Shown here piece by piece: positions 8,458-29,901 of a stretch of DNA of 30,233 nt. The translations under genes and the position numbers were made by a program. Source of the stretch: Candidatus Woesearchaeota archaeon (GTDB lineage Archaea > Nanobdellota > Nanobdellia > Woesearchaeales > GW2011-AR4); contig JADHVE010000006.1 in the NCBI GenBank assembly GCA_016784195.1, positions 1 through 30,233 of the forward strand, read 5' to 3'. The first letter of the stretch is position 1, and the number at the start of each line of letters is the position of its first letter. Under the pieces are notes generated by a model. It worked only from the letters and a program-made list of their open reading frames with translations, did no database searches and was not told the DNA's origin.

Positions 8458-8730
8458 ATGATGCAAATGGCAATTATTGAAGAAAATTTAAAATTAGTAA
8501 ACGATATAGGATTTATAATTCAAGACATAAACCAATCAGGTTACTTTGAAAAGAAACTCTTTAATCATATATTTAGAACCCAGAAGGAGACTTATTGTCC
8601 CAAAGATAGAGTAGTTTTTGAAAACATACACCAAGCATACAGCTGTGCTTATGAACACTTAATCAAATATCGCAATTCAGGATTCATTGATAAAATAAAA
8701 CAATATAGAGCAAATAGGTGGAATAAATAA
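8458..8730 (+). CDS. Hypothetical small protein (90 aa)
   Basis: ORF only. Its stop overlaps the next ORF's start (TAATG). Confidence 0.35.
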   Translation: MMQMAIIEENLKLVNDIGFIIQDINQSGYFEKKLFNHIFRTQKETYCPKDRVVFENIHQAYSCAYEHLIKYRNSGFIDKIKQYRANRWNK

Positions 8731-8966
8731 TGGTCCGGACTGTTTTAAAACCAACAATACTGACTCCTAGTTCTATTGATACTTTTATGGCAATAGCAGA
8801 TTATGTTGCTAATGAAAATGGTTGTAGGATTAAATATGAAAATAACAAAATGCAAATTAAAGGGGACAGAGAAACTGCAATGTTTTCATTAAAAGTCACT
8901 TATGAGAATATCTTAGGTTATAATTTAATTGAGAATAGAAGAAATAATAAACCGGGAACTAAATAA
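8730..8966 (+). CDS. Hypothetical small protein (78 aa), translationally coupled to the upstream small ORF
   Basis: ORF only; TAATG stop/start overlap at 8728-8732. Confidence 0.35.
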   Translation: MVRTVLKPTILTPSSIDTFMAIADYVANENGCRIKYENNKMQIKGDRETAMFSLKVTYENILGYNLIENRRNNKPGTK

Positions 8967-9230
8967 TAATTATTTTATTTGCTATATTATTATTCTTTAA
9001 ATATATAAATGTACTGATTACTTCAGATTTAGTTGAACCCTCAATGTTGTTTTCTGAATTTATTATCTTATCTTTTTTTAACGCACTTAGGCTTTATGAA
9101 TATAATTAAGTTATTTGGAACTCACTGTCCCGCATAACTCTTTTCTACTCGGATTAATCATAGTTTATTACATAACAAAAGGTGACAGAAACAAAACATA
9201 GACAAAACTAAATGGAGAAGAAAAAATATT

Positions 9231-9335
9231 ATGTATGTTGTAGAAGAAAAAAGGGACGATGAAGGAAAGGTTAAGCAAGAAGTAATTAAGTATTTAGGGT
9301 CTGTTGAAAACATTCTTGATAAGTTCAAAGAATAA
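9231..9335 (+). CDS. Possible very small protein (34 aa): MYVVEEKRDDEGKVKQEVIKYLGSVENILDKFKE
   Basis: ATG preceded by the purine-rich ggagaagaaaaaatatt; charged small-protein composition. Below the ORF-track length cutoff. Confidence 0.25.
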   Translation: MYVVEEKRDDEGKVKQEVIKYLGSVENILDKFKE

Positions 9336-9439
9336 CCAAGGGAGTTTCCACGCAACGCTACTAAAATCAAAACGTTTAAATAAAAACAAAATACAGCATA
9401 TAGGTGGTTTTGTAATAAACATCAACAACATATTAAAAA

Positions 9440-9910
9440 ATGAAATGTCCTTTTTGCAGCAATCCTGATACAAAAGTTCTTGATAAAAGGGAAACTGAAG
9501 AGCTGGAAGTAACCAGGAGGAGAAGAGAATGCTTAAAATGCAGAAAACGCTTTACGACTTACGAGAGGATTGAAACTGTTGAGCTGTTTGTTGTAAAAAA
9601 AGATGACAGAAGAGAGCAATTTAACTTAGATAAATTAAAAACAGGTATTATTAAAGCATGCGAAAAAAGGCCAATAAGCATGGAACAGATTGAGCAGGCA
9701 CTTAATAGTATAATGGCAGAGCTTAAAGAAAAAAACAAGAAAGAGATACAAAGCAGGGAAATTGGCGAGTTGCTGATGAGAAAATTAAAGAAGCTTGACC
9801 AGGTTGCTTATATAAGGTTTGCTTCTGTTTACCAGGATTTTCAGGATCTGTCTTCTTTTAAAAAAGAGGTAAGCAGATTAGAGAAAAAAAGGAAAATTAA
9901 TAAAAAATAA
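9440..9910 (+). CDS. nrdR: Transcriptional repressor NrdR (zinc ribbon plus ATP-cone)
   Basis: MKCPFCSNPDTKVLDKRETEELEVTRRRRECLKCRKRFTTYERIE followed by an ATP-cone-like region (VVKKDDRREQFNLDKLKTGIIKACEKRPIS). Confidence 0.85.
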   Translation: MKCPFCSNPDTKVLDKRETEELEVTRRRRECLKCRKRFTTYERIETVELFVVKKDDRREQFNLDKLKTGIIKACEKRPISMEQIEQALNSIMAELKEKNKKEIQSREIGELLMRKLKKLDQVAYIRFASVYQDFQDLSSFKKEVSRLEKKRKINKK

Positions 9911-9942
9911 AGTTTGTATAAAAAACCAATAAAAAAAGTTAT

Positions 9943-10034
9943 CATTAAAAATTAAAAAAAGCCAATTGTGTTCAATTTTTTATTTTTATAATTTTAATAA
10001 TAAACTAAAAAATAATCAAAGAACAAAACCAAAA
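9943..10034 (+). repeat. Copy A of a repeated upstream (promoter/leader) module; contains a TATA-like tract tttttatttttataattttaataa
   Basis: 9943-9965 and 9967-10034 are 100% identical to the reverse complement of 14074-14096 and 13935-14002. Lies between nrdR and the nitroreductase gene. Confidence 0.85.
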
Positions 10035-10041
10035 CAAAACA

Positions 10042-10057
10042 CAAATAATTGTGAATG
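10042..10057. promoter_or_regulatory. Dyad-symmetric motif CACAA-ATAA-TTGTG downstream of copy A; candidate transcription-factor site
   Basis: caaataattgtgaatg. Related sequences: cacaaataattgagt at 14011-14025 (inside the copy-B insertion) and cacataattgagtg at 20881-20894 (copy C). Confidence 0.4.
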
Positions 10058-10130
10058 TATAAAATTACTCAATGGTTTAAAATTAATGATAAAAACAATT
10101 AATGAAAAAACTGATTAAAAGGTGGTTTGG

Positions 10131-10676
10131 ATGAATGAAATCATAAAAACAATAAAAGAAAGAAGATCTATAAGGGCTTATGAAAGCAAGCCAGTTGAGA
10201 AAGAAAAGATTGATCAGATTTTAGAGTGCGGCATGTGGGGGCCTTCTGCAAAGAATGATCAAAAATGGCATTTTACTGTTATAACAAATAAAGAGATTCT
10301 GGGAAAAGTTACAGCAATGAGGGTTCAGGCAGAAACTGATAAGAACTCAATGATGGTACAAAGGGCAAAAACTATGGAAGATCCAGTTTTATATAACGCT
10401 CCACTATATGTTGTGATTACTGCTCCTGAGGATTACAATTATGCAGACATTGACGGATCAATAGCGGCGCATAACATGATATTAACTGCGCATTCTCTTG
10501 GCTTGGGAAGCTGCTATATTGGCACTGTAAAAATTTTGAAGGACAATAAAGAGTTTAAGAGATTATTGCAGGTTCCTGAAGGTCATAAAATTGTGATTAC
10601 AATTGTTTTTGGTTATGCAAAAGAAGAGCCAGAGCCCAAAGAAAGAAATCGAGATGTTGTGAGTTGGATTGAGTGA
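10131..10676 (+). CDS. Nitroreductase-family (NAD(P)H-flavin oxidoreductase-like) protein
   Basis: ERRSIRAY...KWHFTVI...SIAAHNMILTAHSLGLGSCYIG is typical of the nitroreductase fold. ATG at 10131 is preferred over the GTG at 10122 (GGTGG Shine-Dalgarno 6 nt upstream). Confidence 0.8.
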   Translation: MNEIIKTIKERRSIRAYESKPVEKEKIDQILECGMWGPSAKNDQKWHFTVITNKEILGKVTAMRVQAETDKNSMMVQRAKTMEDPVLYNAPLYVVITAPEDYNYADIDGSIAAHNMILTAHSLGLGSCYIGTVKILKDNKEFKRLLQVPEGHKIVITIVFGYAKEEPEPKERNRDVVSWIE

Positions 10677-10681
10677 TTGTT

Positions 10682-11719
10682 TTAAGGTTCCAAAACAACT
10701 TTCAAAGACTCTTTTGCATCTGAAACAATCTTAAAGCCTTCCTGAATTTTATCTAATGGCAGTTTATGAGTTATCAGGTTTTTAACATTTATTTTTTTGC
10801 TTTTTATCAAATCTAATGATTCCTGTAAATCTTTTGGCGCTGCCCCGTAGCTTGAGGTTACTGTTAATTCATTTCTCCAGAAATCTACAGTTGGGATTTC
10901 AATATTTTTGTTGGGTATGGCAAAAAACAATATTGTTCCTTTCTTGTCTATGCAGTTGAATGCCTGCTCAACTGCCTTTAAAGCTCCAGTGCAGATTATT
11001 ATCCTGTCTGCTTTTATATTTAAGCTGTCTTTTGATACACGAAAAAATTCCTTTGAAATTTTTTGCGTCTCAGAACTTGCTTTGTAATTTCTGCGGACAT
11101 CAATAACTTCATCTGCTCCAAACTCTTTTGCTTTTTTTAACCTGTATTCATCTATATCTGTTACAATAACTTTCGCTCCTTTTAGCTTTGCTAATTGTAT
11201 GTTTAACAATCCAGAGATTCCAGAGCCCAGGATTAAAACAATATGCTCTTTTTTTACATTAATAATCCTTTGGCCCCTGACGACGCAGGCTAAAGGCTCA
11301 ATCATTGTCCCTTCATCATAAGTTAGATTATCAAGTGAATAAGTTCCATTTTCTACATTTATTTTTGGGACTCTTACAAATTCAGAAAATCCTCCGGGGT
11401 CATAATTGCCTTGATGCAGGGTTTCACATGCTGTGGAGTTATCTTCTAAGCAGTATTTGCATTTATTGCATGGAACGTGATGGGAAACAAAAACTTTATC
11501 GTTAACTTTGAATTTGTCAGATTTAGATTCAATTACATCTCCTGCAATCTCATGACCCAGAACTCTTGGAGCTTTTTTGATTCTGTACCATTCCATAACA
11601 TCTGTTCCGCAGATGCCGGAAGCTTTTACTTTAATGAGAATTTCTCCTTCAGAAATTGTCGGTTTTGGAATTTCTTCTATTCTTATGTCATTGTTATTGT
11701 GATAGACTGCTGTTTTCAT
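10682..11719 (-). CDS. Zinc-dependent alcohol dehydrogenase family (threonine/sorbitol dehydrogenase-like medium-chain dehydrogenase)
   Basis: GICGTDV, GHEIAGDV, CxxCxxC structural-zinc motif (CNKCKYC), Rossmann motif LILGSGISG. Confidence 0.85.
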   Translation of the reverse strand: MKTAVYHNNNDIRIEEIPKPTISEGEILIKVKASGICGTDVMEWYRIKKAPRVLGHEIAGDVIESKSDKFKVNDKVFVSHHVPCNKCKYCLEDNSTACETLHQGNYDPGGFSEFVRVPKINVENGTYSLDNLTYDEGTMIEPLACVVRGQRIINVKKEHIVLILGSGISGLLNIQLAKLKGAKVIVTDIDEYRLKKAKEFGADEVIDVRRNYKASSETQKISKEFFRVSKDSLNIKADRIIICTGALKAVEQAFNCIDKKGTILFFAIPNKNIEIPTVDFWRNELTVTSSYGAAPKDLQESLDLIKSKKINVKNLITHKLPLDKIQEGFKIVSDAKESLKVVLEP

Positions 11720-11730
11720 AAGAACAAAAA

Positions 11731-12513
11731 TTATTTCTTTTCTTTTTCATAAATCTTATAGGCCTCATCAACCGGAATGTTGTCATGAACCACCGCTCTA
11801 ACAGCCTTTATCATCCCAATGGGCTTACTGCTTTGGAAAATGTTCCTACCCATATCAACTCCTGCTGCTCCTTTGTCAATTACGTTCTTTGCCATTGTTA
11901 AAGCGTCTTTCTCTCCTATCTTCTTTCCCCCTGCCATCACAACAGGTGTATTGCCGCAGGCTTCAACTACTTCTTCAAAGTTTTCGCAGTTATAAGTTTT
12001 GATTATATGGGCTCCTGTCTCTACACAGATTCTTGAAGCCAGCCCTAAATAGCGGGAATCTCTTGCCATATCTTTTCCAACTGCAGTTACTGCCAAAACT
12101 GGAATTCCATAATGTTCTCCCTCATCAACCAACTTTGCCAGATTAGTTATTGATTGTTTTTCAAATTCTCCCCCAATATAAACAGAGCAGGTTACTGCAG
12201 TTGCATTAATCCTGATTGCATTACAGATTGAAGTTGTGATAATCTCATTTGATAGTTCTTTTAGAATACTTTGTCCGCCTGAAACCCTTAAAACGATAGG
12301 GATGTCCATGTCTTCGCTTATCCAGTTCCTTATTGCGCCTCTTGTAATCATCAAAGCGTCTGCATAAGGCAATAAGGGATTGACTGTTTTTCCTAAGTTT
12401 CTTAAGCCGGTTGTTGGACCCTGAAAATAACCATGATCAACTGCTAACATTACGCATCTTTTTGTTTTTGGATTTATTATTCTTGCTAACCTGTTTTTCA
12501 TACCCCAATTCAT
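11731..12513 (-). CDS. DhnA-type class I aldolase (FbaB / DKFP-synthase / ADH-synthase family)
   Basis: MLAVDHGYFQGP near the N-terminus; Schiff-base lysine context IIKTY; overall length and pattern typical of the archaeal class I aldolase family. Confidence 0.75.
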   Translation of the reverse strand: MNWGMKNRLARIINPKTKRCVMLAVDHGYFQGPTTGLRNLGKTVNPLLPYADALMITRGAIRNWISEDMDIPIVLRVSGGQSILKELSNEIITTSICNAIRINATAVTCSVYIGGEFEKQSITNLAKLVDEGEHYGIPVLAVTAVGKDMARDSRYLGLASRICVETGAHIIKTYNCENFEEVVEACGNTPVVMAGGKKIGEKDALTMAKNVIDKGAAGVDMGRNIFQSSKPIGMIKAVRAVVHDNIPVDEAYKIYEKEKK

Positions 12514-12585
12514 TTTGAATAACCTCCGATAAAGTTTTTATTGAAGTAAGCTATAAGCGTATATAAAGGTTTTGCCGAAAAGAAT

Positions 12586-13335
12586 TTATTTGATTTTAGG
12601 TATAGTATTAATTAACAATTGTGTGACTTTCCTGACATTCTTATCAAACACTTCCAGAATCTCTTCCCAAGTTACTGGCTTTTCATCTTCTTTCCAGCAA
12701 TCATAGTCTGTTGACATTGCAATAGCTGCGTAGGGAATTCCTGCTTCATTTGCTAAAATGCATTCAGGGGCTATTGACATATTTATAACATCTGCTCCCC
12801 AAATCCTAAACATTTTTGACTCTGCTCTTGTGCTAAACCTGGGACCTTCGATTGTAATAACAGTTCCTTTTTGGTGAGTTTTTATGCCTGATTCCTTGGC
12901 TGTTTCAATCAAAGTATTTCTTAATTGTTCATCAAAAGGTTCAGGCATTGCAGTATGCTTTGCGTTTTCAGCTCCACCAGGGAATTTATCAAAAAAAGTT
13001 ATTTTTCTGTGGCGTGTAAAATCGATAAATTGATCTAATATTATAAAATCTCCTCTGCCTATTTCTTTCCTTAAACTGCCGCAGGCTGTTGTTGCCAGTA
13101 TATATGCGCAACCAGATTTTTTCAAAGCCTGTATGTTTGCTCTGAAATTAACTCCTGATGGAGGTATTGAATGGTCAAGCCCGTGCCTTGCCAACAAAAC
13201 AATGTCTTTATCTCCTATTTTTCCAGTTTTAACCGTTACTTCTCCATAGTCTGTTTTGATTGTCTCGTCTTTAACATTAGAAATAATATCCGGATTGTCT
13301 AATCCAGAACCGCCGATAATTCCGATTTTTACCAT
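12586..13335 (-). CDS. mtnP: 5'-methylthioadenosine / purine nucleoside phosphorylase (MTAP/PNP family)
   Basis: MVKIGIIGGSGL...LLARHG...ACGSL... pattern of MTAP. The start at 13335 lies 1 nt after the apt stop; the track start at 13350 would overlap apt. Confidence 0.85.
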   Translation of the reverse strand: MVKIGIIGGSGLDNPDIISNVKDETIKTDYGEVTVKTGKIGDKDIVLLARHGLDHSIPPSGVNFRANIQALKKSGCAYILATTACGSLRKEIGRGDFIILDQFIDFTRHRKITFFDKFPGGAENAKHTAMPEPFDEQLRNTLIETAKESGIKTHQKGTVITIEGPRFSTRAESKMFRIWGADVINMSIAPECILANEAGIPYAAIAMSTDYDCWKEDEKPVTWEEILEVFDKNVRKVTQLLINTIPKIK

Positions 13336-13336
13336 G

Positions 13337-13909
13337 TTATTCTCCCTCAAATTCTATCATGGTGAATATTTTGTAATCTTTTAATTTTTCTTTGCCTTTT
13401 AGATCAGGCAGGTCGATGATAAAAGCACATTCAAGAATTTCTCCCCCTAATTGTTCAATAAGCTGAGTTGCAGCATTAACTGTTCCTCCTGTTGCAATCA
13501 GATCGTCTACAAGCAAAATTTTCTCTCCTTTTTTTATTGCATCTTTGTGGATTTCCATCTTGTCTTTGCCATATTCTTTTTCAAACTCTGCAGAAATGGT
13601 TTTATAAGGTAGTTTTCCGGGCTTTCTGATGGGAACAAAGCCAATGCCTAATTTATAAGCTAAAACTGCTCCGAAAATGAAACCTCTTGATTCAATGCCA
13701 ACGACCTTGTCAATCTTAATATCTTTGTATCTGTTGTATAGTTCGTCGCAGACATACTTAAATGCTTCTCCGTCTTGTAAAAGAGTTGTGATGTCTCTGA
13801 ACATCACTCCTTTGATAGGCCAGTGAGGCACTGTTCTTATTTTTTCTTTGATGTTCACTAAAACCACTCCAATAAATTTTTTGCCAATAGTAATTTTACA
13901 CAATAACAA
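13337..13909 (-). CDS. apt: Adenine phosphoribosyltransferase
   Basis: FRDITTLLQDGEAF...VVGIESRGFIFG...ILLVDDLIATGGT is canonical APRT. The start is a non-ATG codon (TTG at 13909, or a GTG a few codons in). Confidence 0.85.
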   Translation of the reverse strand: MLLCKITIGKKFIGVVLVNIKEKIRTVPHWPIKGVMFRDITTLLQDGEAFKYVCDELYNRYKDIKIDKVVGIESRGFIFGAVLAYKLGIGFVPIRKPGKLPYKTISAEFEKEYGKDKMEIHKDAIKKGEKILLVDDLIATGGTVNAATQLIEQLGGEILECAFIIDLPDLKGKEKLKDYKIFTMIEFEGE

Positions 13910-13934
13910 CCATTTAACAACTATTTGTAAATTT

Positions 13935-14096
13935 TTTTGGTTTTGTTCTTTGATTATTTTTTAGTTTATTATTAAAATTATAAAAATAAAAAATTGAACA
14001 CAACCATGTTCACAAATAATTGAGTTCCGGTTTTGGTTGTATTGGCTGTTTTTATTTAATGAAATTTTTATTATTGGCTTTTTTTAATTTTTAATG
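13935..14096 (-). repeat. Copy B of the repeated upstream module (inverted relative to copy A), interrupted by a 70-bp insertion (14004-14073); sits upstream of apt and overlaps the ZPR1 3' end
   Basis: 13935-14002 equals the reverse complement of 9967-10034 (68/68) and 14074-14096 equals the reverse complement of 9943-9965 (23/23), both checked by eye. The insertion carries a degenerate copy of the adjacent CACAA..TTGTG motif. Confidence 0.85.
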
Positions 14097-14616
14097 TGCT
14101 TTTCTCTGCTTTGTCTGAAATTATTGCTGAGTTTCCTGAAGGGTCTTCAATTATTAGTTTTGAGCTTTCCTGACCCCACATTATCCTGGTTATTTTTTTC
14201 AGTAGATTTTTTGCTTTTGTCCTGTCTTCTTTTTCTTCTGCAGTGTCCCTTAATGTCTCTATCTGATGTTTTACCCTTTTGAAGATTCCTTCAATGTTTG
14301 TTATAAATCCCTGAGAAGCAGGACCTGGGGTTATTGTGGTTATGTGGGGAATCTTAATCGTGGCTTCTGAGCTTTTGACAACCCTTGTGTTTAGGTCTTT
14401 CTCTGATGAAATCTCAAAAGTATATTTTACCGGCTCTTTTCTTTCTGTGGCTTCTATATCTGCCTTGTGGTACTTGCAGTTAGAACAAGTCATTGAAAAG
14501 AGAAAAACCTTGCCGAAGTACGGAACTTCAGTCTCCTCTTCCATCAGTGTCAATGCTTTTTCGTGGCAAAACGGGCAAGGCTGATTATCCATAATGTCGA
14601 CTTGAGTTTTTGACAT
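14071..14616 (-). CDS. ZPR1-type zinc-finger protein
   Basis: CPFCHEKAL...(32 aa)...CSNCKYHK zinc-ribbon pair followed by a beta-rich domain, characteristic of the ZPR1 domain. The last 8 codons plus the stop are encoded by repeat copy B. Confidence 0.8.
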   Translation of the reverse strand: MSKTQVDIMDNQPCPFCHEKALTLMEEETEVPYFGKVFLFSMTCSNCKYHKADIEATERKEPVKYTFEISSEKDLNTRVVKSSEATIKIPHITTITPGPASQGFITNIEGIFKRVKHQIETLRDTAEEKEDRTKAKNLLKKITRIMWGQESSKLIIEDPSGNSAIISDKAEKSTLKIKKSQ

Positions 14617-14991
14617 AAACTACGGTTTTAGAATTATGTTTTTATAGTTTTCTGTTTTTTTGTTGAGGAAATGTTTTTATGGAAAAAACATTAGCTGCGT
14701 GGTTTTGAAAACTAAGGTTATTGTAGAAATGGTGGAATTCTAATGTAATATGGGTGGGAAGTTAGGGATTGCAATTAAAAAAACTTATTTTTATAGATTA
14801 TATTGTCTTATTGAAAAATATCTTAAAAAAGAATGAATAAATGATGAAAATCTGTTATCCCGAGAATAAACAAAAATTATTATGTGAGTTTAATCTAATT
14901 TTTGGATAAGAACTTTTTTTATTTCTTAAAAACTCATCTTTATAAATAATATTGAATAATATTTCAAAAAAATATTTAATCTAAAAAAGAA

Positions 14992-15417
14992 TTATTCGCT
15001 ATACTCTGAAACTTCAGAGACTTCTTTCTTTTTAGGCTCTTTTGGCTTGCCCCTGTGGATGCTGGCAAAGTTTGGAACTGCTGCAATCCAGTTTTCTCCG
15101 AAACCTGCTATGTCTCCATCAATTGCGTCACATGTTTTCTTCAGTTTGTTGATTGCTCTTTTCAGCTCTACTAAGTCCTTGTCTTTCAATGGCTTAATGT
15201 TGACCAAAGCTATGGTTCGGCCTTCTCTTAAGCAATCCAGAATCGGTTTTATTCCCTCAAAATCTTCTATAACAAACGGCCTTACTGTAATCTTTGTTTT
15301 TTCTTCTATTGCTCCTTCTGTGCCTATTTCTACATAACCTTCTTCTTCTGTTTCTTCAAGAATCTTAGAACTATCCCTCATTTTTTCCTTTAATCTTGAA
15401 AAAAAACCTGACATCAA
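14992..15417 (-). CDS. sepF: Cell-division protein SepF homologue (DUF552)
   Basis: C-terminal RPFVIEDFEGIKPILDCLREGRTIALVNIKPLKDKDLVELKRAINKLKKTCDAIDGDIAGFGENWIAAVPNF matches the SepF core. Confidence 0.7.
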   Translation of the reverse strand: MMSGFFSRLKEKMRDSSKILEETEEEGYVEIGTEGAIEEKTKITVRPFVIEDFEGIKPILDCLREGRTIALVNIKPLKDKDLVELKRAINKLKKTCDAIDGDIAGFGENWIAAVPNFASIHRGKPKEPKKKEVSEVSEYSE

Positions 15418-15833: not shown

Positions 15834-16181
15834 ATGACAGAAAAAAATATTATAACTGAAACTCCAATAAGTATGTATGATCTTAAAGAGGAGCTGGCAA
15901 AAATAAAAAAGAGAGATAAAGAATTAAATTTTAGGGCAGCAAAAACAGAAGAGTACCTGCAGCAGGTAATGAGCTTTAAAAAGGCAGGTGAGCTTTATGA
16001 TAAATTAACTAAACTGGATATCCCCAGGTTAAGAGAGCAGCATATCAAAAAGATAATCGATCTTCTGCCAAAAACAGTAAAAGACCTTAAGGTTATACTT
16101 CAGGGCTATACTTTAACAATCAATAATGAAAATGCGAAGAAAATAACTGATGCTGTTAACAAATTTAGCGATAAAGAATAA
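15834..16181 (+). CDS. rpoF: DNA-directed RNA polymerase subunit F (Rpo4 / Rpb4 homologue)
   Basis: 115 aa immediately after L21e. TEEYL...HIKKIIDLLPKTVKDLKVIL fits RpoF, and L21e–RpoF–DUF655 synteny is conserved in Archaea. Confidence 0.65.
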   Translation: MTEKNIITETPISMYDLKEELAKIKKRDKELNFRAAKTEEYLQQVMSFKKAGELYDKLTKLDIPRLREQHIKKIIDLLPKTVKDLKVILQGYTLTINNENAKKITDAVNKFSDKE

Positions 16182-16493
16182 TTGCTTTTTCTGTGAAAAA
16201 AAATATCTATCATTAAAAAATTACCAATAAGAGCAGAAACATGATAGGATCTAGTTGTGAATTGTTTTTATGATTTTATGTATTATTTATTTTTTGAATA
16301 ACAAAAAATATTTTTATTTTAAAAGTAAAAAAAGACATAAAGAATAGAAACAAAAAAAACACAAATAAATGTTATAGTGTAAATTCACCTAGGGTAAAAA
16401 AATTAATTGAAAATATGTGAAATATTTTGAGATAATACATGCTTTGCAAAAATTACAAATATTTATAAATACTTATGTTTATATTGTAGAAAA

Positions 16494-17420
16494 ATGAGGG
16501 TGGAAATAGATAAAATACATAAAGATAGCTATAGCAAGCTGGCTGATGACGTGAATAAGAAGTCTAAGAGCTTTAAATCGAAAGACTACAAAGCAAGCTT
16601 GAGTTATGAAAGCTTATTGTTAAACAAGGACATTTCAGTTGAGAAAAAAAAGAAAGCCTTGATTGAAAGGCTGCATAAATTAATTATAAAGACCTTTTCA
16701 ATTGATTTAAGCAAGATAAAGTCAGAAAAAAAGATTTTAGAGGTTTTGAAACATAATATAAGAGTATTAAGGAAGATTGTTGATAAACTGAAGGATATAA
16801 ATTATTACCTTGAAGAAAGCTTTTTAGCAGAGCTTGGGCTGATAAAAAGAAGCTTAAACATTAATAAAAACAAAAGCCCTGAAAGATTAATAGAGAATGC
16901 AAAATTTTCATTGAGCAAGCAGTATTTGTGCAAATTAGAGCATACTACCTATAAACTAATTGAAAAAATAATATTATTTGATAAAAAATTATTAAAGGGC
17001 TATAAGTCAAAAGAGGAGAAGATTATTGCTAAAGAGAAGGTTGTAATAAAAGACATAAATAATGTTTTAAAAAAGCAGTCAGAGCTTTTCAACCATTTAG
17101 AGGCAAAACTTCCCCCCCCGAGCAAAATAAAGCCTTTACTGCTGAAAAAAAAGATTTTCAACCAATGGATACCTGTAGTGTTGACATTAATGACTGCATG
17201 TAACAGCGAATATAGAAAAGAAGAGATGATTTTTGAAAAATTAAAGAAAAACAAGAAAATAAAACAGATAATCAATAAAAAAATATCATCTTTAGAGAAA
17301 GAAAAAGCAGGCCTGATAGGGATAAAGCAAGAAAGAGTTATGGGAAGGGCAAAATTAGGCGGTTTAGAAAATGAACTAAGGATTATGTTCCACGATTTTA
17401 ATGCTGTTAAAAACTTATAA
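16494..17420 (+). CDS. Hypothetical lysine-rich (coiled-coil-like) protein inserted between rpoF and the DUF655 gene
   Basis: 308-aa ORF preceded by a 310-bp AT-rich gap. No recognisable domain. Contains a C8 homopolymer at 17112-17119. Confidence 0.5.
   Translation: MRVEIDKIHKDSYSKLADDVNKKSKSFKSKDYKASLSYESLLLNKDISVEKKKKALIERLHKLIIKTFSIDLSKIKSEKKILEVLKHNIRVLRKIVDKLKDINYYLEESFLAELGLIKRSLNINKNKSPERLIENAKFSLSKQYLCKLEHTTYKLIEKIILFDKKLLKGYKSKEEKIIAKEKVVIKDINNVLKKQSELFNHLEAKLPPPSKIKPLLLKKKIFNQWIPVVLTLMTACNSEYRKEEMIFEKLKKNKKIKQIINKKISSLEKEKAGLIGIKQERVMGRAKLGGLENELRIMFHDFNAVKNL
17112..17119 (+). repeat. Poly-C homopolymer (8 C) inside the 16494..17420 CDS
   Basis: ttcc ccccccc gag encodes LPPPS. 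A C/G homopolymer of 8 is rare in roughly 30%-GC DNA. Confidence 0.9.
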
Positions 17421-19673: not shown

Positions 19674-20681
19674 ATGAAAACAGGGGTTTTGTATAATACC
19701 ATCAAAAGTTCTGAGACTCGAGAAGTCGAAGAAGATTTGATGGAAATGGCTAATAAGATTAAAAAGTCTTTAGAAAACAACGGCCATGAAGTTTCTTTAA
19801 TTAATGCTGATAAGAACCTTTTTAAAAATTTAAACAAAAAAAATATTGAATTTGTGTTTAATGTTTGCGAAAGGTTTAATGGCAATAGCTTATTTGAACC
19901 CCATGTTGCTGCTATGCTTGAGCTTTTCGGTGTTTCTTTTACTGGCTCTGATTATGTAGCCTTGTCTGAATGTAATAATAAAATAAAAACAAAAGAAATT
20001 TTAACAGTTAACCTAATGCCTACTCCAAAATACCATGTTTTTTGTTCTCCTGATGAAAAATTAAATCCCGGATTGAAATTTCCTTTGATTGTCAAGCCAA
20101 AACAGCAGGAGAACAGCATAGGCATTACAAAAGACGCTGTCGTTTATGATGAAAAAAGTTTGAGAGAAAGGATTAAGTATGTTAATGATGAGTTTAAAGA
20201 AGAAGCTTTGGTTGAAGAGTTTATTAAAGGCATTGATGTTGAGGTCGGGATAATCGGTAATGGTGATGATTTATTTATCCTGCCACTTGCAAAAGTCAAT
20301 TATGAAAATCTTTCAGATGCTGATGAAAATAAGATTTTTTGTTATGAATCAAAATGGGACTTAAAATCCAAGAACTACGGGGATTATGTAAAAGCTGATC
20401 TGTCTGAAGAGGTAGAAGAAAAATTAAAAAGATTGGCGGTAAAAATTTACAAAATTTTTAATATTAAAGATTATGGGAGAATTGATTTCAGGCTGACTGA
20501 AAATAATGAGCCTTATGTTATTGAAGTTACGGCTAATCCCGGGCTGAGTAAGGTTTGCTCAACTCTGGAATCAGCAGAATGGATTGGCTTGAGTTATAGA
20601 GAATTGGTCAATAAAATTTTTGAAAGCGCTTTAAACAGGTATGATATCAGCAAAGAAGAAGCAATAAAAATTTACCCATAA
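19674..20681 (+). CDS. ATP-grasp ligase of the D-alanine–D-alanine ligase-like family
   Basis: Ddl-like N-terminal domain (GHEVSLINADKN), central FPLIVKPKQQENSIGIT, ATP-grasp core EEFIKGIDVEVGIIGNG...EVTANPGLS. Confidence 0.75.
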   Translation: MKTGVLYNTIKSSETREVEEDLMEMANKIKKSLENNGHEVSLINADKNLFKNLNKKNIEFVFNVCERFNGNSLFEPHVAAMLELFGVSFTGSDYVALSECNNKIKTKEILTVNLMPTPKYHVFCSPDEKLNPGLKFPLIVKPKQQENSIGITKDAVVYDEKSLRERIKYVNDEFKEEALVEEFIKGIDVEVGIIGNGDDLFILPLAKVNYENLSDADENKIFCYESKWDLKSKNYGDYVKADLSEEVEEKLKRLAVKIYKIFNIKDYGRIDFRLTENNEPYVIEVTANPGLSKVCSTLESAEWIGLSYRELVNKIFESALNRYDISKEEAIKIYP

Positions 20682-20815
20682 ACAAAAATCCAATAAAAAA
20701 AGGCCATTAACAAAAAAATTATCATCAAAGATTAATAAAGAGTTCAAATAATAAAAAGATACTCCAAAATACCTGACAGGGCACAAACAGAAACACAATT
20801 AGTGGCTGGTGCGGC

Positions 20816-20957
20816 TGTGTTAATTTTTATTATTAAAAATTTTAAAAACCGAAAAGATTATCAAAAAACTAAAAACTACCCACATAATTGAGTGCGTGCA
20901 ATAAAACCTAATGAAAAAAAATAATAACTTAAAATTAATGGTAAAAAATAATTAATG
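20816..20957 (+). repeat. Copy C (diverged, about 70-85% locally) of the repeated upstream module, upstream of the DUF2156-like gene
   Basis: tgtgttaatttttattattaaaaatttt... parallels copy A's tgtgttcaattttttatttttataatttt...; cacataattgagtg versus cacaaataattgtg; ttaaaattaatggtaaaaaataattaatga (20929-20958) versus ttaaaattaatgataaaaacaattaatga (10078-10106). Confidence 0.6.
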
Positions 20958-21893
20958 ATTAAAGATTTAGGGGCGTGTGAATTGGAAGAAATAACAGATA
21001 CAAACAAATACAAAGGATATATTCAAACAGCAATAAGAAAATATGGGCATTGCGCAGAGCATAACTATTATCATTACCATCACTATGAAGATGATAAAGA
21101 AAAAAATATTTTCTTTAAGCTAGAAGGCAGCAAAGGGATATTATCCAGCTATGATAAAAAAAATGATTTGCGATATTTGTTTCCTTCAGGGATACTAGCT
21201 CCTGAAGAAGAGCGTTTTGATATACTGGTTAAGTTTTTGGATTATATTCTAAAAAAGAAAAAAGGAGAAAAACTATTTGTTGAAGTCAATGGGGAGTTTA
21301 GGAAAGAAATATTGAGGGGATTAAAAGATTCCAGACAATACAGGGCTTGCTCCAGCCCGTTTATCCTTTACTGGCCTTTGTATAACATGTCTAAGTTCGA
21401 TTCTAAACTAAAAGGCAAGAACTGGAAAAAATTGAGGAACATAAGGAACAGGTTTTATAAGAAGAATAAAGTCAAAGTTGTCGACAGCAAAAAAGTTCCT
21501 AAAGAACAGCTAACAAGGATATTAGATGCATGGCTGAAAAGAAGGAATGCCCATGATCGGGTGGAAAAGCATTATTTTGAAAATCTTATTGAAAACAATC
21601 TAAAAGGGGTTGAAATGGCAAGGACATTAATTGTTAATGGCAATCCATGCTCAATAACCGCTGGATGGAAAATACCCAATAGCAAAGGATACTATTCTCA
21701 TGTCGGGATTGTGGATTATTCTTGTGAAGGTCTTGGAGAAGTGGCTAATATTGAAGACTTAAAACTGTTAAAAAGAAAAAAATATGATTATGTTGATTTT
21801 GGCGGCTCAGATAAAGTTTTGCTTTATTTCAAGAAAAAGTTCAAACCTGAAAAAATCTATAAGACTTATATTTTTTCTATAGTCAAAAGATAA
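20955..21893 (+). CDS. DUF2156-like protein (homologue of the catalytic domain of aminoacyl-phosphatidylglycerol synthase MprF/LysX and VlmA: aminoacyl-tRNA-dependent aminoacyltransferase), with no membrane domain
   Basis: C-terminal ...VDFGGSDKVLLYFKKKFKPEKIYKTYIF resembles the conserved C-terminal block of DUF2156; 312 aa with no TM segment. Assigned from memory, moderate confidence. Confidence 0.5.
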   Translation: MIKDLGACELEEITDTNKYKGYIQTAIRKYGHCAEHNYYHYHHYEDDKEKNIFFKLEGSKGILSSYDKKNDLRYLFPSGILAPEEERFDILVKFLDYILKKKKGEKLFVEVNGEFRKEILRGLKDSRQYRACSSPFILYWPLYNMSKFDSKLKGKNWKKLRNIRNRFYKKNKVKVVDSKKVPKEQLTRILDAWLKRRNAHDRVEKHYFENLIENNLKGVEMARTLIVNGNPCSITAGWKIPNSKGYYSHVGIVDYSCEGLGEVANIEDLKLLKRKKYDYVDFGGSDKVLLYFKKKFKPEKIYKTYIFSIVKR

Positions 21894-22239
21894 TACACTT
21901 TGTTTCTCCTATTTAAATTTTCAATTGAGAGATTAGGCTAAGCAATGTTAAATTTGTCCCTAGGCTACCCTATTTTTATATAATTTATATAAAAAACCTA
22001 AAAAAAACGATATGTTTAAATACTAAATTTGCTTACTCATGTACTAAGAAAGCAAAAAGTTCAGTTGGAATAAAAAAAGGTAGTAAATAATTTTTTATGG
22101 GAATTTCTATTTTATTCCTGTAATATAGTATTCAACATCATTATGAGGAGTTAGTTGAAACCGTGTGTTGGATGTATAACAAATTAGTTTAGTAAATATT
22201 TGTAATAAGATTGGTATTAACCCATTATAGAGCTGGGGG

Positions 22240-23583
22240 TTGGAACAAGTGAACGACATTACTAGTATTTTAGAATCAGACAAAACTCAGGTTAACGTAG
22301 AGGGAGCCATAAACCCAATTATTATTGGAGGGCCGCATCGCACAGCCAAAAGCGAAACTTTAAACGCACTAGAACAGTATTATCCTGATTCTTATACTCG
22401 AGGGAAGAAATGGAAGTTTAGAATTGGAGGTTCATGGCCAGATGATGGTGAAAAAGACAGTATAATTGTTAAAACTAAAGAAGAAGCTGAGCAATTAATC
22501 GAAAAAGGCAAAATTGGAACCCATTACTGGGGTCCAGATACCTGGCATCTAGTTGATTTGGAAGATGCTTTGAAGAAGTCTAGTTCTCATAAGGTGTATA
22601 TTTCAGATGTTCATGTAGGTGTTGTAAATATGACTGAGTTTTTTAATCTTGAAATTGGTAGAAAGCCAATTAGTTTTTTATTCTATACTAACCCTTTACT
22701 TGTAGAAACAAGATTGAAGGAAGCAAATATTCCTAATGTGCAGATAGAGACACGATTAAGAGGCGTTGGAGAACAATTCGCGATTTTTAGGGAAAATGCG
22801 GAAGAATATCTTTTCTTGATGAAAATTCCATGGCCTCCAATCAATTCTAGTATTTCATTACCAGGGCCAGCTGAAGCTAAGCAAACTAGAGAAGTTAAAG
22901 GATATGCAGACAGATTAGATTTTCTTGTCAAGGCATATGAAAAATATTATGATTTATCAAGAGATAGAGATTACCTAGGGATTCATCATGCATATATCAA
23001 TGATATTTCAACCAAGTTGCATGGTGGACATTTAGGGGACCTGAAAGTAAAGATTCAAGATGGAATCAAAGTTAAGATAGACTTAGAATCAGAATTGGAA
23101 AAATATACTTCTCCAGATAATCCAGACTCAGTGAGATTATCTCAGAAAATCAAGGAATTAGTAAAATCTGTGGAAATTAAGAGATACCAAAAAGCTAATG
23201 GGAGATATTCCTTGTGGATAGATTCCCTGGTGGACCCCTATGATTCCAAAGATTGCGATATTGACCCGGAAGATGTAGTTCTTGATCTGCTGGAGCTAAG
23301 GTTAGGGAAACCCACCCTGAGAAATAAGATGAACAATCAAAATTTTGGGAACATATCCCATCACGCGTTAGTCAATGTTACAGGATCTACTTTAAGAGAC
23401 GGAGCCATGTATTCTTTAGGTGATCAATTACTTACAGATCATACTCACCCGTCCCTTTCAATAGGTTTTTTAAGCACTAATGGTAAGCCCCATTTTATGT
23501 ACGGGTTGGATGGAGAACAATTAACTAAGATGCAGCAGCATCTCAATGGAAAATCCAATACCTACACAGATATGCCTTACTAA
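22240..23583 (+). CDS. Hypothetical 447-aa protein with a deviant Walker-A-like motif (IIGGPHRTAKSE)
   Basis: Long ORF with a non-ATG start (TTG at 22240 or GTG at 22249, after a GGGGG Shine-Dalgarno). No recognisable domain apart from the GxxxxAKS motif; His-rich. Confidence 0.6.
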   Translation: MEQVNDITSILESDKTQVNVEGAINPIIIGGPHRTAKSETLNALEQYYPDSYTRGKKWKFRIGGSWPDDGEKDSIIVKTKEEAEQLIEKGKIGTHYWGPDTWHLVDLEDALKKSSSHKVYISDVHVGVVNMTEFFNLEIGRKPISFLFYTNPLLVETRLKEANIPNVQIETRLRGVGEQFAIFRENAEEYLFLMKIPWPPINSSISLPGPAEAKQTREVKGYADRLDFLVKAYEKYYDLSRDRDYLGIHHAYINDISTKLHGGHLGDLKVKIQDGIKVKIDLESELEKYTSPDNPDSVRLSQKIKELVKSVEIKRYQKANGRYSLWIDSLVDPYDSKDCDIDPEDVVLDLLELRLGKPTLRNKMNNQNFGNISHHALVNVTGSTLRDGAMYSLGDQLLTDHTHPSLSIGFLSTNGKPHFMYGLDGEQLTKMQQHLNGKSNTYTDMPY

Positions 23584-23588
23584 ATCGT

Positions 23589-24542
23589 TTATAAATATTC
23601 AATACCTACTCTTGCTACTTTGATAGCAATCAGTAATTCAAAAGCATGTTCTAATCTACTTATCAAGACTAATTCGTCTGGCTGAATTTTAGTTTGATAT
23701 TTAAACAACAATTCTACCACTTCATCTCTACTCTTATGCATACTCTTTGACTTAATTAAGTCAAATTTAAAGAAGAATGTAGAATACAGATGTATGCTTT
23801 CATTTACTAAATCAAAAATACGGATAGTTTTACTGTCTAACTTACGGTTTAACACTTGTAAATCTCTGCCCGCATTCTTCAAAACATCTATGATAGAGTC
23901 TATATTGGAGATGATGTTGTAAAGGCTGAGTGTCTTTCTATGATTAGAATATCCTTGTTTGTTTAACAACCTCAAGCAGTAGCTTACAAATTTAGTTATT
24001 GAATCGTGTTTTTCTTCAATAGATTGTATTAACTGGAGATTTATCTCTTTTGCTCCTTTGACCAGATCGGAACTTGTATCATTTAATAATAAAAAAATTC
24101 TTCTTAAAACCGAATCGAACTCCTGAATTGAACTTTTAGAAAGATTTTTGATAATGCAGAAATTTTCTTTTTGTTGAACTATTTCGTAGCCAACCAATCT
24201 GTTAATTTCAGTATGGAGGATGGTACTAATATTCCTCTCTTCATTTAATCGAAAGTACCAAGCTGTTGGTTTGTTAAACCTAACTTTGATTTCATCATAA
24301 CCTACCCTATAGAGGGCTTGGATATAATATAAAATAGTAGTTCTGTCCAGATCAGTAATATCTATTTCTATTTTTCCAATCTCTTCTCCTGCTTCAGTAC
24401 TAATCAAAATCTTATTTCCTTGCTCTTCAACCTCCAACTCATCACCTTTCTTAATTCCATACCTCTTAGCCCATGGTCTGGGAAGAGAGATAAGCTGAGT
24501 AGAATTTGCTATCTGTATAACTTTTCTTTTAATAATAACCAC
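23589..24542 (-). CDS. Transcriptional regulator with an N-terminal SpoVT/AbrB swapped-hairpin domain and a C-terminal PhoU-like helical domain
   Basis: RKVIQIANSTQLISLPRPWAKRYGIKKGDELEVEE is a classic AbrB/MazE-fold signature. The ~250-aa helical remainder is consistent with archaeal AbrB–PhoU proteins. Confidence 0.65.
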   Translation of the reverse strand: MVIIKRKVIQIANSTQLISLPRPWAKRYGIKKGDELEVEEQGNKILISTEAGEEIGKIEIDITDLDRTTILYYIQALYRVGYDEIKVRFNKPTAWYFRLNEERNISTILHTEINRLVGYEIVQQKENFCIIKNLSKSSIQEFDSVLRRIFLLLNDTSSDLVKGAKEINLQLIQSIEEKHDSITKFVSYCLRLLNKQGYSNHRKTLSLYNIISNIDSIIDVLKNAGRDLQVLNRKLDSKTIRIFDLVNESIHLYSTFFFKFDLIKSKSMHKSRDEVVELLFKYQTKIQPDELVLISRLEHAFELLIAIKVARVGIEYL

Positions 24543-24755
24543 CCTGAATTATAACTAATATAAACTAATTAAATAATTATAAAAAACCCCTTTAATCTTT
24601 GTAGTACTATATAGAAAATAAAGTTATATATAAATTTTTCTTTTTTATATAAAATTAAAAGTTTTTATAAATTTTAAGCATAGACCATATAAAGTTAATA
24701 ATATGATTTATCTATATATAAACCACTAAAAAATAAATAAAATAGGGAGAATATA

Positions 24756-24863: not shown

Positions 24864-24934
24864 TTTCTTTAATTTCAGGTTATTTTACCCTAACATTGAA
24901 AGAATAATTAACGGCTAAGATTTCTGCAGAGTTC

Positions 24935-29731: not shown

Positions 29732-29901
29732 AGTTGACCATTAATTTATTGTTAATTATTGTATTATTGATTAATTGGCTATTATGTGATTTAACACTAA
29801 CACAATTATTTGTTTTATTTTAAAATGAATAAAATAAAAAATATCAAAACGACCACTGCTAATTATGATTCTGATGGTGTTTTATGGGTAACTTTTAATA
29901 A

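Follow-up and report, generated by a model that had tools for sequence, protein, structure and literature searches.

The perfect 92-nt inverted match in this archaeal DNA is an ordinary dispersed repeat and no proof of a dedicated shared promoter. It belongs to a lineage-specific, MITE-like family whose members join a hairpin, a T-tract and a promoter-like end, and in which one pair of copies (A and B) has recently been homogenised. In the window, by which we mean the whole 30,233-nt stretch analysed, A and B belong to a family that numbers at least five related non-coding modules, all of them intergenic.

String comparison confirmed that the match is real, with 9943-10034 (+) equal to the reverse complement of 14073-14096 followed by that of 13935-14002. 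The 92 nt consist of two pieces, L24 (24 nt) and core68 (68 nt), which in copy B are separated by 70 nt:

9943-9966 (+): L24 of copy A, 24 nt identical to 14073-14096 (-)
9967-10034 (+): core68 of copy A, 68 nt identical to 13935-14002 (-), with a T-tract (T6AT5) at 9976-9987 plus an A-rich spacer
13935-14002 (-): core68 of copy B, with its T-tract at 13982-13993
14003-14072 (-): 70-nt segment that B has and A lacks, including the palindrome of site 1 (14011-24), another L24-like motif (CATTAAATAAAAACAGCCAAT) and, of a hairpin, the loop with the 5' arm
14073-14096 (-): L24 of copy B, encoding the end of ZPR1 (TLKIKKSQ) and reaching one base into its stop codon

An inverted-repeat search of the window returned arms of 24 nt at 100% (I13) and of 90 nt at 93% (I1), with imperfect similarity running on to 10055/13914. 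The match is far above chance, because the next-longest inverted repeat in the window has only 44 nt at 73%. Each copy is oriented toward the gene downstream of it, as the first-pass annotation had observed from the sequence. Its description of the match as intergenic is wrong for the first 24 nt of copy B, where ZPR1 ends (T-L-K-I-K-K-S-Q-stop) with a C-terminus (S/T-L-K-V/I-K-(K)) kept in 11 relatives. Nor are A and B a unique pair, as three further diverged copies occupy the same window:

9917-10090, approximate (+): copy A, flanked by nrdR (9440-9910) and by the nitroreductase gene (10131-10676), without the hairpin segment
13886-14096 (-): copy B, filling the spacer between ZPR1 (14071-14616, -) and apt (13337-13858, -)
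16209-16447 (+): copy C, between the Rpb4 gene (15834-16181) and the native promoter of a 308-aa gene (16494-17420)
20690-20950 (+): copy E, between an ATP-grasp gene (19674-20681) and an LPG-synthase-like gene (20955-21893)
29781-29903 (-): copy D, between the minus-strand genes for S6e and aIF2-gamma (28472-29731)

The nhmmer family profile matched copy A at 9961-10075 (E 1.3e-19), copy B at 14059-13884 (E 1.7e-30), copy C (E 5e-20) and copy D (E 6.6e-16), which is short, lacks the A-rich spacer and carries site 2 at 29801-29814. Copy E was recovered de novo (E 2.4e-8) by a profile made from A, B, C, D and L020, and reached E 3.8e-28 once included. Final family scores ran from E 1e-16 to 1e-30, the best of 20 shuffles giving E 0.09. 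Against 80 GTDB Woesearchaeota/Nanoarchaeota loci (1.13 Mb) the profile made exactly one match, in the ZPR1-apt spacer of L029 (E 1.7e-11). It found no further copies in the other spacers of the window or in the 10 kb beyond it, and none in the relatives L018, L022, L024 and L110-L112. The count of five copies covers about 40 kb of this genome. The earlier proposal of a shared promoter was to fall if the element proved to be a dispersed repeat unrelated to gene starts; it is indeed a multi-copy family (5 in ~40 kb), but all copies lie upstream of genes in sense orientation, each of the five being placed between co-directional genes.

The full unit is about 170-240 nt long. It begins with an A-rich left end (..ATCATTAAAAA..CCAATA), followed by an imperfect hairpin that includes the palindrome CACAA-TTAG-TTGTG (site 1) and by the T-tract (T6AT5); an A-rich spacer then leads to a second palindrome, ACAAATAATTGTG (site 2), and the unit closes with an AT-rich box, GTGTAAAATTAC, and a short A-rich tail. 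Site 2 is conserved across all family members in our alignments, as is the position of the AT-rich box. Copy C is a clean insertion. In two outgroups (L018 and L022) its site is empty and reads stop codon, 17 nt, AAAAATTACAAATnTTTATAAATAC...ATG, and the window keeps both flanks with some 240 nt in between, so that the spacer measures 312 nt here versus 51-104 nt in 12 of 14 relatives, and the native promoter is retained downstream.

Comparison of A with the rest of the family shows that the identity of A and B is a mosaic. The two copies have no differences over 92 nt, and immediately rightward they show 9 mismatches in 51 aligned columns plus indels. The A-B identity there is 82%, within the 74-87% range of A versus all other members, and because A is no closer to B than to the others in this part, the 92/92 stretch is a patch. 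Very recent duplication or gene conversion, one of two readings offered from the sequence alone, is therefore the best account of it. The other, that a shared promoter or leader is under strong selection, is needless and unlikely: the corresponding stretch is markedly different in the other members and in the orthologous spacers of two other species, and the conserved palindrome and the best-placed AT-rich box, just right of the perfect stretch, have diverged between A and B.

The first-pass annotation had taken the 70 nt for an insertion in B. Copy B lies in a spacer orthologous to the ZPR1-apt spacers of L020 and L029, and since homologues of the segment occur in those two species (second left motif and hairpin) and in copy E, whose hairpin segment is by eye the one closest to that of L020 in the alignment, the segment is ancestral in B and missing from A. 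The complete hairpin of B spans 13997-14043, and core68 holds part of its 3' arm.

Copy A, for its part, stands where synteny is broken on both sides. In L018 and L022 the nitroreductase gene directly follows mtnA, and in L110/L111, L112 and L113 nrdR heads an operon of nrdR, a kinase and a dCMP deaminase; neither order survives at the junction that A occupies. Its left flank (9917-9960) resembles the left ends of E (p=0.0005) and C (p=0.003), and outside the perfect stretch is unlike the sequence flanking B.

We assign a probability of roughly 0.55 to the following account: a lineage-specific dispersed intergenic family, serving as a tolerated terminator-like and promoter-like cassette, in which A and B were homogenised recently by local, non-reciprocal exchange. 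The oldest detectable member would be B in the ZPR1-apt spacer, common to the window and two other species, and in the window's lineage copies would have spread into other co-directional spacers, always in sense. The identity of L24 and core68 would then stem from a recent exchange between copies 3.9 kb apart, most likely ectopic gene conversion (or alternatively partial re-copying), the 70-nt hairpin loop either having escaped conversion or having been lost afterwards. Ectopic gene conversion between dispersed repeats is established, for example between duplicated tuf genes and rRNA operons. The A/B pair shares with such cases a sharply bounded perfect tract within diverged paralogues, in either orientation and with flanks not rearranged, but its tract is short (92 nt) and interrupted by an indel of 70 nt that was not transferred. 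Had B simply converted A, the 70 nt would be expected in A as well, and in the opposite direction they would be expected to be gone from B; a further assumption is therefore required, be it a large heteroduplex loop that escaped repair, conversion in two patches or later deletion of the hairpin. Which copy was the donor is ambiguous, as L24 is coding in B, yet the left end of A appears to be a native family end.

As to function, the unit is most likely a tolerated cassette with a terminator-like hairpin and T-tract and an outward promoter-like end, both putative roles being read from position and sequence only. The likeliest core promoter consists of the site 2 palindrome and the AT-rich box, outside the perfect stretch:

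10040-10053 (+): site 2 palindrome CACAA-ATAA-TTGTG of copy A, a perfect match to the motif, outside the perfect stretch
10057-10068 (+): AT-rich box GTATAAAATTAC of copy A, 63-74 nt before the nitroreductase ATG at 10131
13890-13929 (-): diverged right part of copy B, comprising site 2 TACAAATAGTTGTT (13916-13929), the AT-rich box and an internal duplication of 11 nt
13890-13901 (-): AT-rich box GTGTAAAATTAC of copy B, 32-43 nt ahead of the GTG at 13858 with which apt starts

Of these, GTATAAAATTAC is the best-placed TATA-like candidate for the nitroreductase gene. The TATA-like tract first pointed out in the shared part is poorly placed by comparison, lying ~125-145 nt from the start codons, versus ~30-60 nt for recognisable native promoters. 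With native upstream sequence reduced to ~27 nt, the apt-mtnP promoter would have to come from module B, and module A probably provides one for the nitroreductase gene, now without mtnA, its usual operon partner upstream. At copy C the native promoter still lies downstream of the module, which speaks against a shared promoter and would make module C dispensable there. The genes following B, previously read as a single apt-mtnP-aldolase-adh operon, probably form two units, apt-mtnP and aldolase-ADH; the aldolase gene is preceded by a separate spacer of 72 nt that contains a canonical AAAACCTTTATATA box. No regulatory RNA, also suggested earlier, was found, with no match in Rfam and a minimum free energy for the 92-mer of -5.3 kcal/mol (z -0.9). 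Every full copy nevertheless folds into a hairpin with T-tract, and the whole B spacer folds with z = -4.0; RNAalifold gave no covariation support for the hairpin.

The likeliest of the rival accounts, though we hold it to be rather unlikely, is that a piece of the ZPR1-apt spacer (the ZPR1 tail with the T-tract and A-rich part) was copied in inverted orientation into the nrdR-nitroreductase junction during the rearrangement that formed it, for example by template switching, landing beside pre-existing or unrelated promoter-like sequence, so that the orphaned nitroreductase gene gained an upstream region. The junction broken on both sides relative to relatives is exactly where copy A lies, 92/92 identity suits a young copy, and L24, coding in B and conserved at the protein level in relatives, suggests transfer from B to A. 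Such copying would, however, need to skip 70 internal nt, and the left end of A resembles C and E while its right end has site 2 and the AT-rich box in register; as both flanks are family-like, a family member was probably resident at A already. Improbable in our view is a cis-regulatory module under purifying selection, through which one regulator would co-control nitroreductase and apt-mtnP. The regulator might be NrdR, encoded directly upstream of copy A, given palindromes that resemble its box arms (CAC.A ... T.GTG). CACAA-N4-TTGTG has 4 matches in the window versus 1.0 expected, 3 of them within modules, the palindrome is conserved at two unit positions across three species, and nitroreductase, apt, mtnP, aldolase, ADH and mtnA are clustered in relatives (methylthioadenosine/adenine salvage). 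Against this, the identical part holds no intact palindrome of A, site 1 being deleted in A and site 2 lying outside the identity and differing between A and B; in other members and other species the corresponding stretch is considerably different; the unit also precedes unrelated genes (308-aa protein, aIF2-gamma, LPG-synthase-like); and relatives without the module have no palindrome in these spacers. The palindromes share with NrdR boxes the arms CAC(A/T)A ... T(A/T)GTG and a C-N8-G geometry, but score only 7/10 on the box core, a value reached 286 times in the window. Canonical boxes come as pairs 15-16 bp (or 25-26 bp) apart with an AT/TA centre, at ribonucleotide reductase or nrdR promoters (PMC9110341, PMC12051234). 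The module palindromes are instead single sites with different centres, before unrelated genes and 84-96 bp apart versus 31-32 bp centre to centre in the canonical case, and the native box-like pair upstream of nrdR has yet another centre (CATAT).

Also unlikely is a classical MITE or an IS200/IS605-type palindrome-associated element mobilised in trans, with A as a recent transposition product. In favour of this are a multi-copy family of small, AT-rich, non-coding units in intergenic DNA, the clean filled/empty site at C and palindromes close to both ends of the unit; a DDE transposase gene occurs in the related genome L111, and MITEs with promoters or terminator-like hairpins are known (PMC10969869). 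On the other hand, we found no convincing terminal inverted repeats or target-site duplications at the family copies and no transposase gene in the window or 10 kb beyond, and ATCATTAA/TTAATGAT, a candidate for an end motif, is about as frequent as chance predicts. Copy A is moreover a mosaic and not a full identical copy of B, and the sequence resembling the last ZPR1 codons in A, perhaps also in E, is more readily explained by copying of a segment than by exact excision and insertion.

Set beside known repeats, the family recalls the Correia elements of Neisseria and promoter-carrying MITEs in being short (~100-250 bp), non-coding, multi-copy and mostly intergenic, often just upstream of genes, with possible outward promoter-like sequence, protein-binding sites and secondary structure. 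Correia elements, present in >100 copies per genome, show defined terminal inverted repeats together with a TA target duplication (review PMC10969869), whereas here we found no consistent inverted ends or duplications and five copies in ~40 kb, all in sense between co-directional genes of a DPANN archaeon with archaeal promoters. SPRITE, BOX and RUP of Streptococcus pneumoniae and REP/BIME are likewise dispersed extragenic hairpin repeats that tend to follow gene ends, SPRITE being similar to a hairpin and T-run terminator (PMC10969869; PMC3184786). They are, however, bacterial and shorter or otherwise modular, REP being tied to RAYT transposases, while in our family, for which no RAYT/TnpA gene is known, the hairpin and T-tract make up only the left half and the right half is promoter-like. 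Archaeal MITEs (Sulfolobus SM, Haloquadratum, Halobacterium) are also small non-autonomous repeats of archaeal intergenic DNA, but they are recognisable deletion derivatives of insertion sequences that keep the parental terminal repeats (PMC10969869), and no parent element is identifiable here.

The two copies also bracket a segment that had been proposed to invert:

10035-13934: 3.9 kb with the nitroreductase gene (+) and the genes for ADH, a DeoC-type aldolase, mtnP and apt (all -)

That this segment is a recombination switch, or the repeat an assembly artefact, is highly improbable. The exact 68-nt inverted repeats are potential substrates for homologous recombination and assemblies do break at them, but every contig across a copy (L001, L003, L009, L010, L013) has the reference junctions and none the inverted arrangement, although these are consensus assemblies that a minor isoform could escape. 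No recombinase gene lies nearby, and gene order within the segment and orientation relative to ZPR1 match those of relatives and are the ancestral arrangement. The repeat was seen again in independent assemblies from several separate samples, copy A with its unique flanks in L009, L010, L013 and L001/L008 and copy B with its own in L001, L002 and L003; since L24 has fewer nucleotides than the Logan k-mer (31), a graph collapse cannot account for it in Logan contigs. Many contigs end at the repeat (L012 is exactly 10035-13934, L002 stops at 13935, and several Logan contigs begin at 10005 or stop at 13974), as they should at a genuine exact repeat.

The exact inverted match described in the first-pass annotation holds at every base: positions 9943-10034 on the forward strand equal the reverse complement of 14073-14096 joined to 13935-14002 (92/92), and imperfect similarity between the two copies, here called A and B, extends to ~10090 and ~13886. 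Our repeat search recovered the arms as I13 (24 nt at 100%) and I1 (90 nt at 93%), and nothing comparable was found elsewhere in the window, the runner-up inverted repeat being 44 nt at 73%. The contig is archaeal with ~32% G+C, and the two copies are flanked by the following genes:

9440-9910, + strand: nrdR, upstream of copy A
10131-10676, + strand: nitroreductase gene, downstream of copy A
13337-13858, - strand: apt, downstream of copy B and overlapping mtnP
14071-14616, - strand: ZPR1, upstream of copy B

The 24-nt piece of the match coincides in copy B with the final ZPR1 codons (TLKIKKSQ-stop), a C-terminus of the form S/T-L-K-V/I-K-(K) being common to 11 relatives. After apt and mtnP come a DeoC-type aldolase gene and then a zinc ADH gene, and because a separate 72-nt spacer containing AAAACCTTTATATA precedes the aldolase gene, what had been taken as a single apt-mtnP-aldolase-adh operon is probably two transcription units. 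Together with the nitroreductase gene these form a conserved cluster (window 10131-13858, and the loci L018 and L022 of relatives, where mtnA is also included) reminiscent of the 'DHAP-shunt' route of methylthioadenosine salvage. The nitroreductase gene is always part of the cluster without evident reason, and in L022 a class II aldolase gene also adjoins it.

Both copies with their unique flanks were recovered in independent ENA and Logan assemblies from separate samples, and in every assembly compared A, B and their surroundings are the same as in the window. Contig ends coincide with the repeat borders: contig L012 is exactly 10035-13934, contig L002 stops at 13935, and several Logan contigs begin at 10005 or finish at 13974. 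The repeat is not an assembly artefact. As for the proposal that the 3.9-kb segment between the copies could invert, inverted junctions occur in no contig, and the gene order from ZPR1 to the nitroreductase gene is otherwise as in relatives, so that the bracketed segment is in its ancestral orientation. A further copy at 16.3 kb (copy C, below) holds three of the nine differences between the window and contig NODE_5164 over 14.7 kb (two SNPs and a 1-nt indel, at 16280, 16352 and 16369), whereas A and B are invariant throughout. Contig L010 (ERZ24794666 NODE_145700; window 8685-12574), considered as a divergent strain for dating, was useless for that purpose: it equals the window up to 12453, continues at ~75% identity with 27 differences in ~105 nt (aldolase N-terminus and promoter), and beyond this enters an unrelated divergent gene, which by eye resembles the CheB-like gene found at that place in L022. 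Either the contig comes from a recombinant strain without adjacent apt-mtnP, or two co-occurring species were joined in a chimeric assembly. In L002, 20 of the 22 differences from the window fall within 1.3 kb (22975-24304, the end of a 447-aa ORF and a MazE-like gene), which is a local hotspot of strain variation.

Copies A and B belong to a larger family. Weak repeats from the repeat search (D2, D4, D9 and I3) pointed to 16.3, 20.7 and 29.8 kb, where alignment revealed the same order of elements as in A and B. A profile built from A, B, C, D and the related locus L020 found copy E (20766-20913) de novo at E 2.4e-8, and gave one match among 80 GTDB Woesearchaeota and Nanoarchaeota loci (1.13 Mb), in the ZPR1-apt spacer of L029 (E 1.7e-11). 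The final profile covers seven members at E 1e-16 to 1e-30, while 20 shuffles of the window yielded no E better than 0.09. All five window copies lie between co-directional genes and are oriented with them:

9917-10090, + strand: copy A, nrdR to nitroreductase gene
13886-14096, - strand: copy B, ZPR1 to apt
16209-16447, + strand: copy C, Rpb4 to a 308-aa gene
20690-20950, + strand: copy E, ATP-grasp to LPG-synthase-like gene
29781-29903, - strand: copy D, S6e to aIF2-gamma

With the profile, no further copies were found in other window spacers, in the 10 kb beyond the window end (L106) or in the relatives' other loci, giving five copies in ~40 kb for the window lineage versus one in ~36 kb for the L020 species. 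A DNA scan of a genome-contig collection with the 22-mer AATAATCAAAGAACAAAACCAA returned 0 matches, the source MAG apparently being absent from that collection; the family pattern gave one chance match only in JGI metagenomes, inside a bacterial restriction-modification gene (L025); and the leftmost window protein, used as a query for leftward extension, retrieved no contig. Three unusually long non-coding spacers (8967-9439, 21894-22239 and 24543-24934; ~350-470 nt) match neither the module family nor Rfam. The SepF-ZPR1 spacer (14617-14991) measures 375 nt versus 88 nt in L018 and 80 nt in L022; its ends and native AGAAAACTATAAAAAC promoter box are conserved, and its interior is ~290 nt of unrelated non-coding sequence without a match to the family. 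Next to copy D, tandem and partly overlapping 21-57-nt repeats (D1 and D3; 29912-30070, - strand) in the S6e C-terminal region probably encode a Lys/Glu-rich repetitive tail.

From left to right, the unit is organized as follows:

Left end: A-rich, containing ATCATTAAAAA and then CCAATA
Next: imperfect hairpin around CACAA-TTAG-TTGTG, with a T-tract directly after it (T6AT5 in A and B, at 9976-9987 and 13982-13993)
Right part: A-rich spacer, second palindrome ACAAATAATTGTG, AT-rich box GTGTAAAATTAC and A-rich tail

Palindrome sequences in the modules include CACAAATAATTGTG and CACAATTAGTTGTG, and the palindrome in the right part of the unit is only 5 bp. The motif CACAA-N4-TTGTG (at most one mismatch) occurs four times in the window versus 1.0 expected, three of these within modules. 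The hairpin before the T-tract is foldable in all six full copies tested (window B to E, L020 and L029; z -0.6 to -4.8), and the whole B spacer folds with z = -4.0. RNAalifold gave no covariation support (-2.2 kcal/mol with an unfavourable covariation term), and a consensus hairpin with covariation was set aside, single-sequence folds being all that favours the structure. An intrinsic terminator scan detected only the copy E hairpin, and the promoter scan was of the sigma-70 type, which is inapplicable to archaea. An archaeal core promoter consists of a BRE and a TATA box ~25 nt ahead of the start site. From sequence alone, GTATAAAATTAC (10057-10068) and GTGTAAAATTAC (13890-13901) are candidate core-promoter boxes that are better placed than the AT-rich tract of the 68-nt piece. 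The suggestion that the match might be a regulatory RNA found no backing: Rfam gave no relevant match in 9000-15000 at E <= 1, nor any in the whole window at gathering score, and the 92-mer is unstructured (MFE -5.3 kcal/mol, z -0.9).

The modules have the character of inserted DNA. Between Rpb4 and the 308-aa gene, the sequence of L018 and L022 runs 'stop codon, 17 nt, AAAAATTACAAATnTTTATAAATAC...ATG', and the window retains both the T-run after the stop and the native promoter, with ~240 nt of module between them; 12 of 14 relatives have a spacer of 51-104 nt here, versus 312 nt in the window. Since the native promoter is kept downstream of copy C, the module would not be the promoter of the 308-aa gene. 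A 287-nt spacer in the same position in L036 (7173-7465; GTDB CAYXMT010000005.1), from another Woesearchaeota species, was rejected as a family member, its sequence being unrelated; it is an independent insert, also upstream of the retained native promoter, and insertions between terminator and promoter may be tolerated in general. At copy B only ~27 nt of native apt upstream sequence are left, so that any apt promoter would have to lie in the right end of the module.

The ZPR1-apt spacer also bears on the polarity of the 70-nt difference between A and B (14003-14072), which contains a second left-end motif and the hairpin with palindrome CACAATTAGTTGTG. This spacer is 49 nt in L018 (ZPR1 85% identical) and 99 nt in L022 (82%), neither module-like, and 242 nt in L020 (80%, from the same study) and ~300 nt in the GTDB locus L029 (76%). 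Because the two long spacers align in order with copy B over its whole length, the 70 nt missing from A among it, copy B represents the ancestral state and copy A a form without the hairpin segment, reversing the earlier description of a 70-bp insertion in copy B.

The identity of A and B is a mosaic patch. To the right of the perfect stretch the copies differ by 9 mismatches in 51 aligned columns and by an 11-nt duplication in B; their identity there is 82%, no higher than the 74-87% between A and C, D, E, L020 and L029. To the left, A resembles E (p = 0.0005) and C (p = 0.003) at their left ends, and B runs into ZPR1. Given this neighbouring divergence, the probability of 0 differences in 92 nt is well below 1e-3. 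Other family members and other species diverge considerably over the equivalent stretch, and selection for the exact sequence is therefore not credible; the idea of a shared promoter receives no support from the perfect stretch itself, and the recent duplication or gene conversion also raised at first pass is supported. The simplest account is that A and B, both already resident in inverted orientation 3.9 kb apart, recently underwent a non-reciprocal exchange, with the 70-nt hairpin either not transferred or lost later. Read conservatively, the case illustrates how exact identity in AT-rich intergenic DNA can be deceptive: it reflects the dynamics of a repeat family, insertion plus gene conversion, and not a conserved regulatory signal.

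The main alternative to exchange between resident copies is a fresh partial copy made during a rearrangement, and copy A lies where synteny is interrupted on each side. In L018 and L022, mtnA (IF-2B family) comes first and the nitroreductase gene second, with gaps of 47 and 10 nt between them, and mtnA is absent from the window. In the related loci L110/L111, L112 and L113, nrdR leads an operon that also contains genes for an AAA-type nucleotide kinase and a dCMP deaminase; in the window it is separated from both, and copy A comes after it. A search for the reciprocal junction with the relatives' nrdR-linked kinase gave as best named match P0242, from another genome (GCA_016185915.1); neither the kinase nor mtnA of the window species was found. 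To the left of nrdR the window has small ORFs at 8458-8966, L15e and a Band_7 protein, where relatives have DUF1385 and peptidase M29 genes; the window M29 gene lies at 768-1838, 7.6 kb away.

A non-autonomous mobile element of the MITE type fits the family in part. The units are small (~120-240 nt, within the ~50-800 bp of MITEs), non-coding and AT-rich, in spacers without an ORF or Pfam-bearing gene; five copies are dispersed in ~40 kb; and the C site, its flanks conserved, is occupied by a module in the window but vacant in L018 and L022. However, no end motif is shared by all copies in inverted orientation, no clear target-site duplication of the modules was seen, and neither the window nor L106 holds a transposase gene, a DDE transposase occurring only in a related species (L111). 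The candidate terminal inverted repeat ATCATTAA/TTAATGAT was rejected with 2 and 3 window occurrences versus ~2.5 per strand expected from base composition, and GCCAATA/TATTGGC occurs only in copy B. A-rich strings like AAAAATTA(C) stand on both sides of copy C, but such strings are common here and the element limits are fuzzy. REP and IS200-IS605 elements combine conserved subterminal hairpins, recognized on single-stranded DNA, with a Y1 transposase (TnpA/RAYT); in the module family a hairpin is foldable in six copies, without covariation support. Among the closest relatives in kind are the Correia, SPRITE and REP sequences, promoter- or terminator-bearing small dispersed repeats of bacteria (PMC10969869), together with archaeal MITEs and ordinary ectopic gene conversion. 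The module is a new case of this kind of small dispersed repeat, in a DPANN archaeon, and is unusual among them for its strict sense orientation between co-directional genes. Our literature searches on Woesearchaeota gave no description of small mobile or repeated elements, and our data document an undescribed dispersed intergenic repeat. It marks a synteny breakpoint, and at one conserved gene pair at least (ZPR1-apt) it has taken the place of the upstream region in three species. Should the modules indeed contain a terminator and a promoter, they would offer a mechanism to rewire transcription units in very small archaeal genomes.

Although speculative, it is tempting to see in the module a transferable 'terminator + operator + promoter' cassette that, within one Woesearchaeota lineage, is actively spreading into the gaps between co-directional genes, splits operons and tight gene pairs into separately controlled units, answers to one palindrome-binding regulator, conceivably the neighbouring NrdR, and supplies recombination substrates that reshuffle gene order, with the nrdR/nitroreductase junction as the case in point. 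We consider this combined scenario unlikely, at roughly one chance in eight. If true, a single regulator would control unrelated genes (adenine/methylthioadenosine salvage, nitroreductase, aIF2-gamma and others), and this would be a first case in DPANN archaea of a regulon growing through a mobile promoter element. NrdR, described as rare in archaea, binds paired palindromic 16-bp boxes 15-16 bp (or 25-26 bp) apart (PMC9110341, PMC12051234). A box has a conserved C and G spaced 9 nt from each other around an AT-rich centre. The module palindromes are single and lie 84 bp (L020) or 96 bp (B) apart centre to centre, away from the canonical pair spacing; no second box ~31 bp from either palindrome was seen by eye in the aligned copies; and their centres differ from those of NrdR boxes. 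The module palindromes match the NrdR box core at 7/10, no better than the 286 window sites that reach this score. Modules precede the nitroreductase gene, apt, the 308-aa gene, the LPG-synthase-like gene and aIF2-gamma, and not ribonucleotide reductase or nrdR promoters. We rejected the modules as NrdR operators, the score not discriminating in AT-rich DNA, the spacing being wrong and the native nrdR boxes differing, and keep the idea as a low-probability lead.

Upstream of nrdR itself, between a TTTAAATAAAAA box and the gene start, lie two box-like decamers, CAGCATATAG (9394-9403) and CAACATATTA (9426-9435), 32 bp apart and different in sequence from the module palindromes. The same layout recurs upstream of nrdR in L110 with CATCATATTG and CCACATATAG, and the pair looks like canonical NrdR autoregulation in an archaeon. 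NrdR homologues were abundant among the Woesearchaeota, Nanoarchaeota and Aenigmarchaeota matches.
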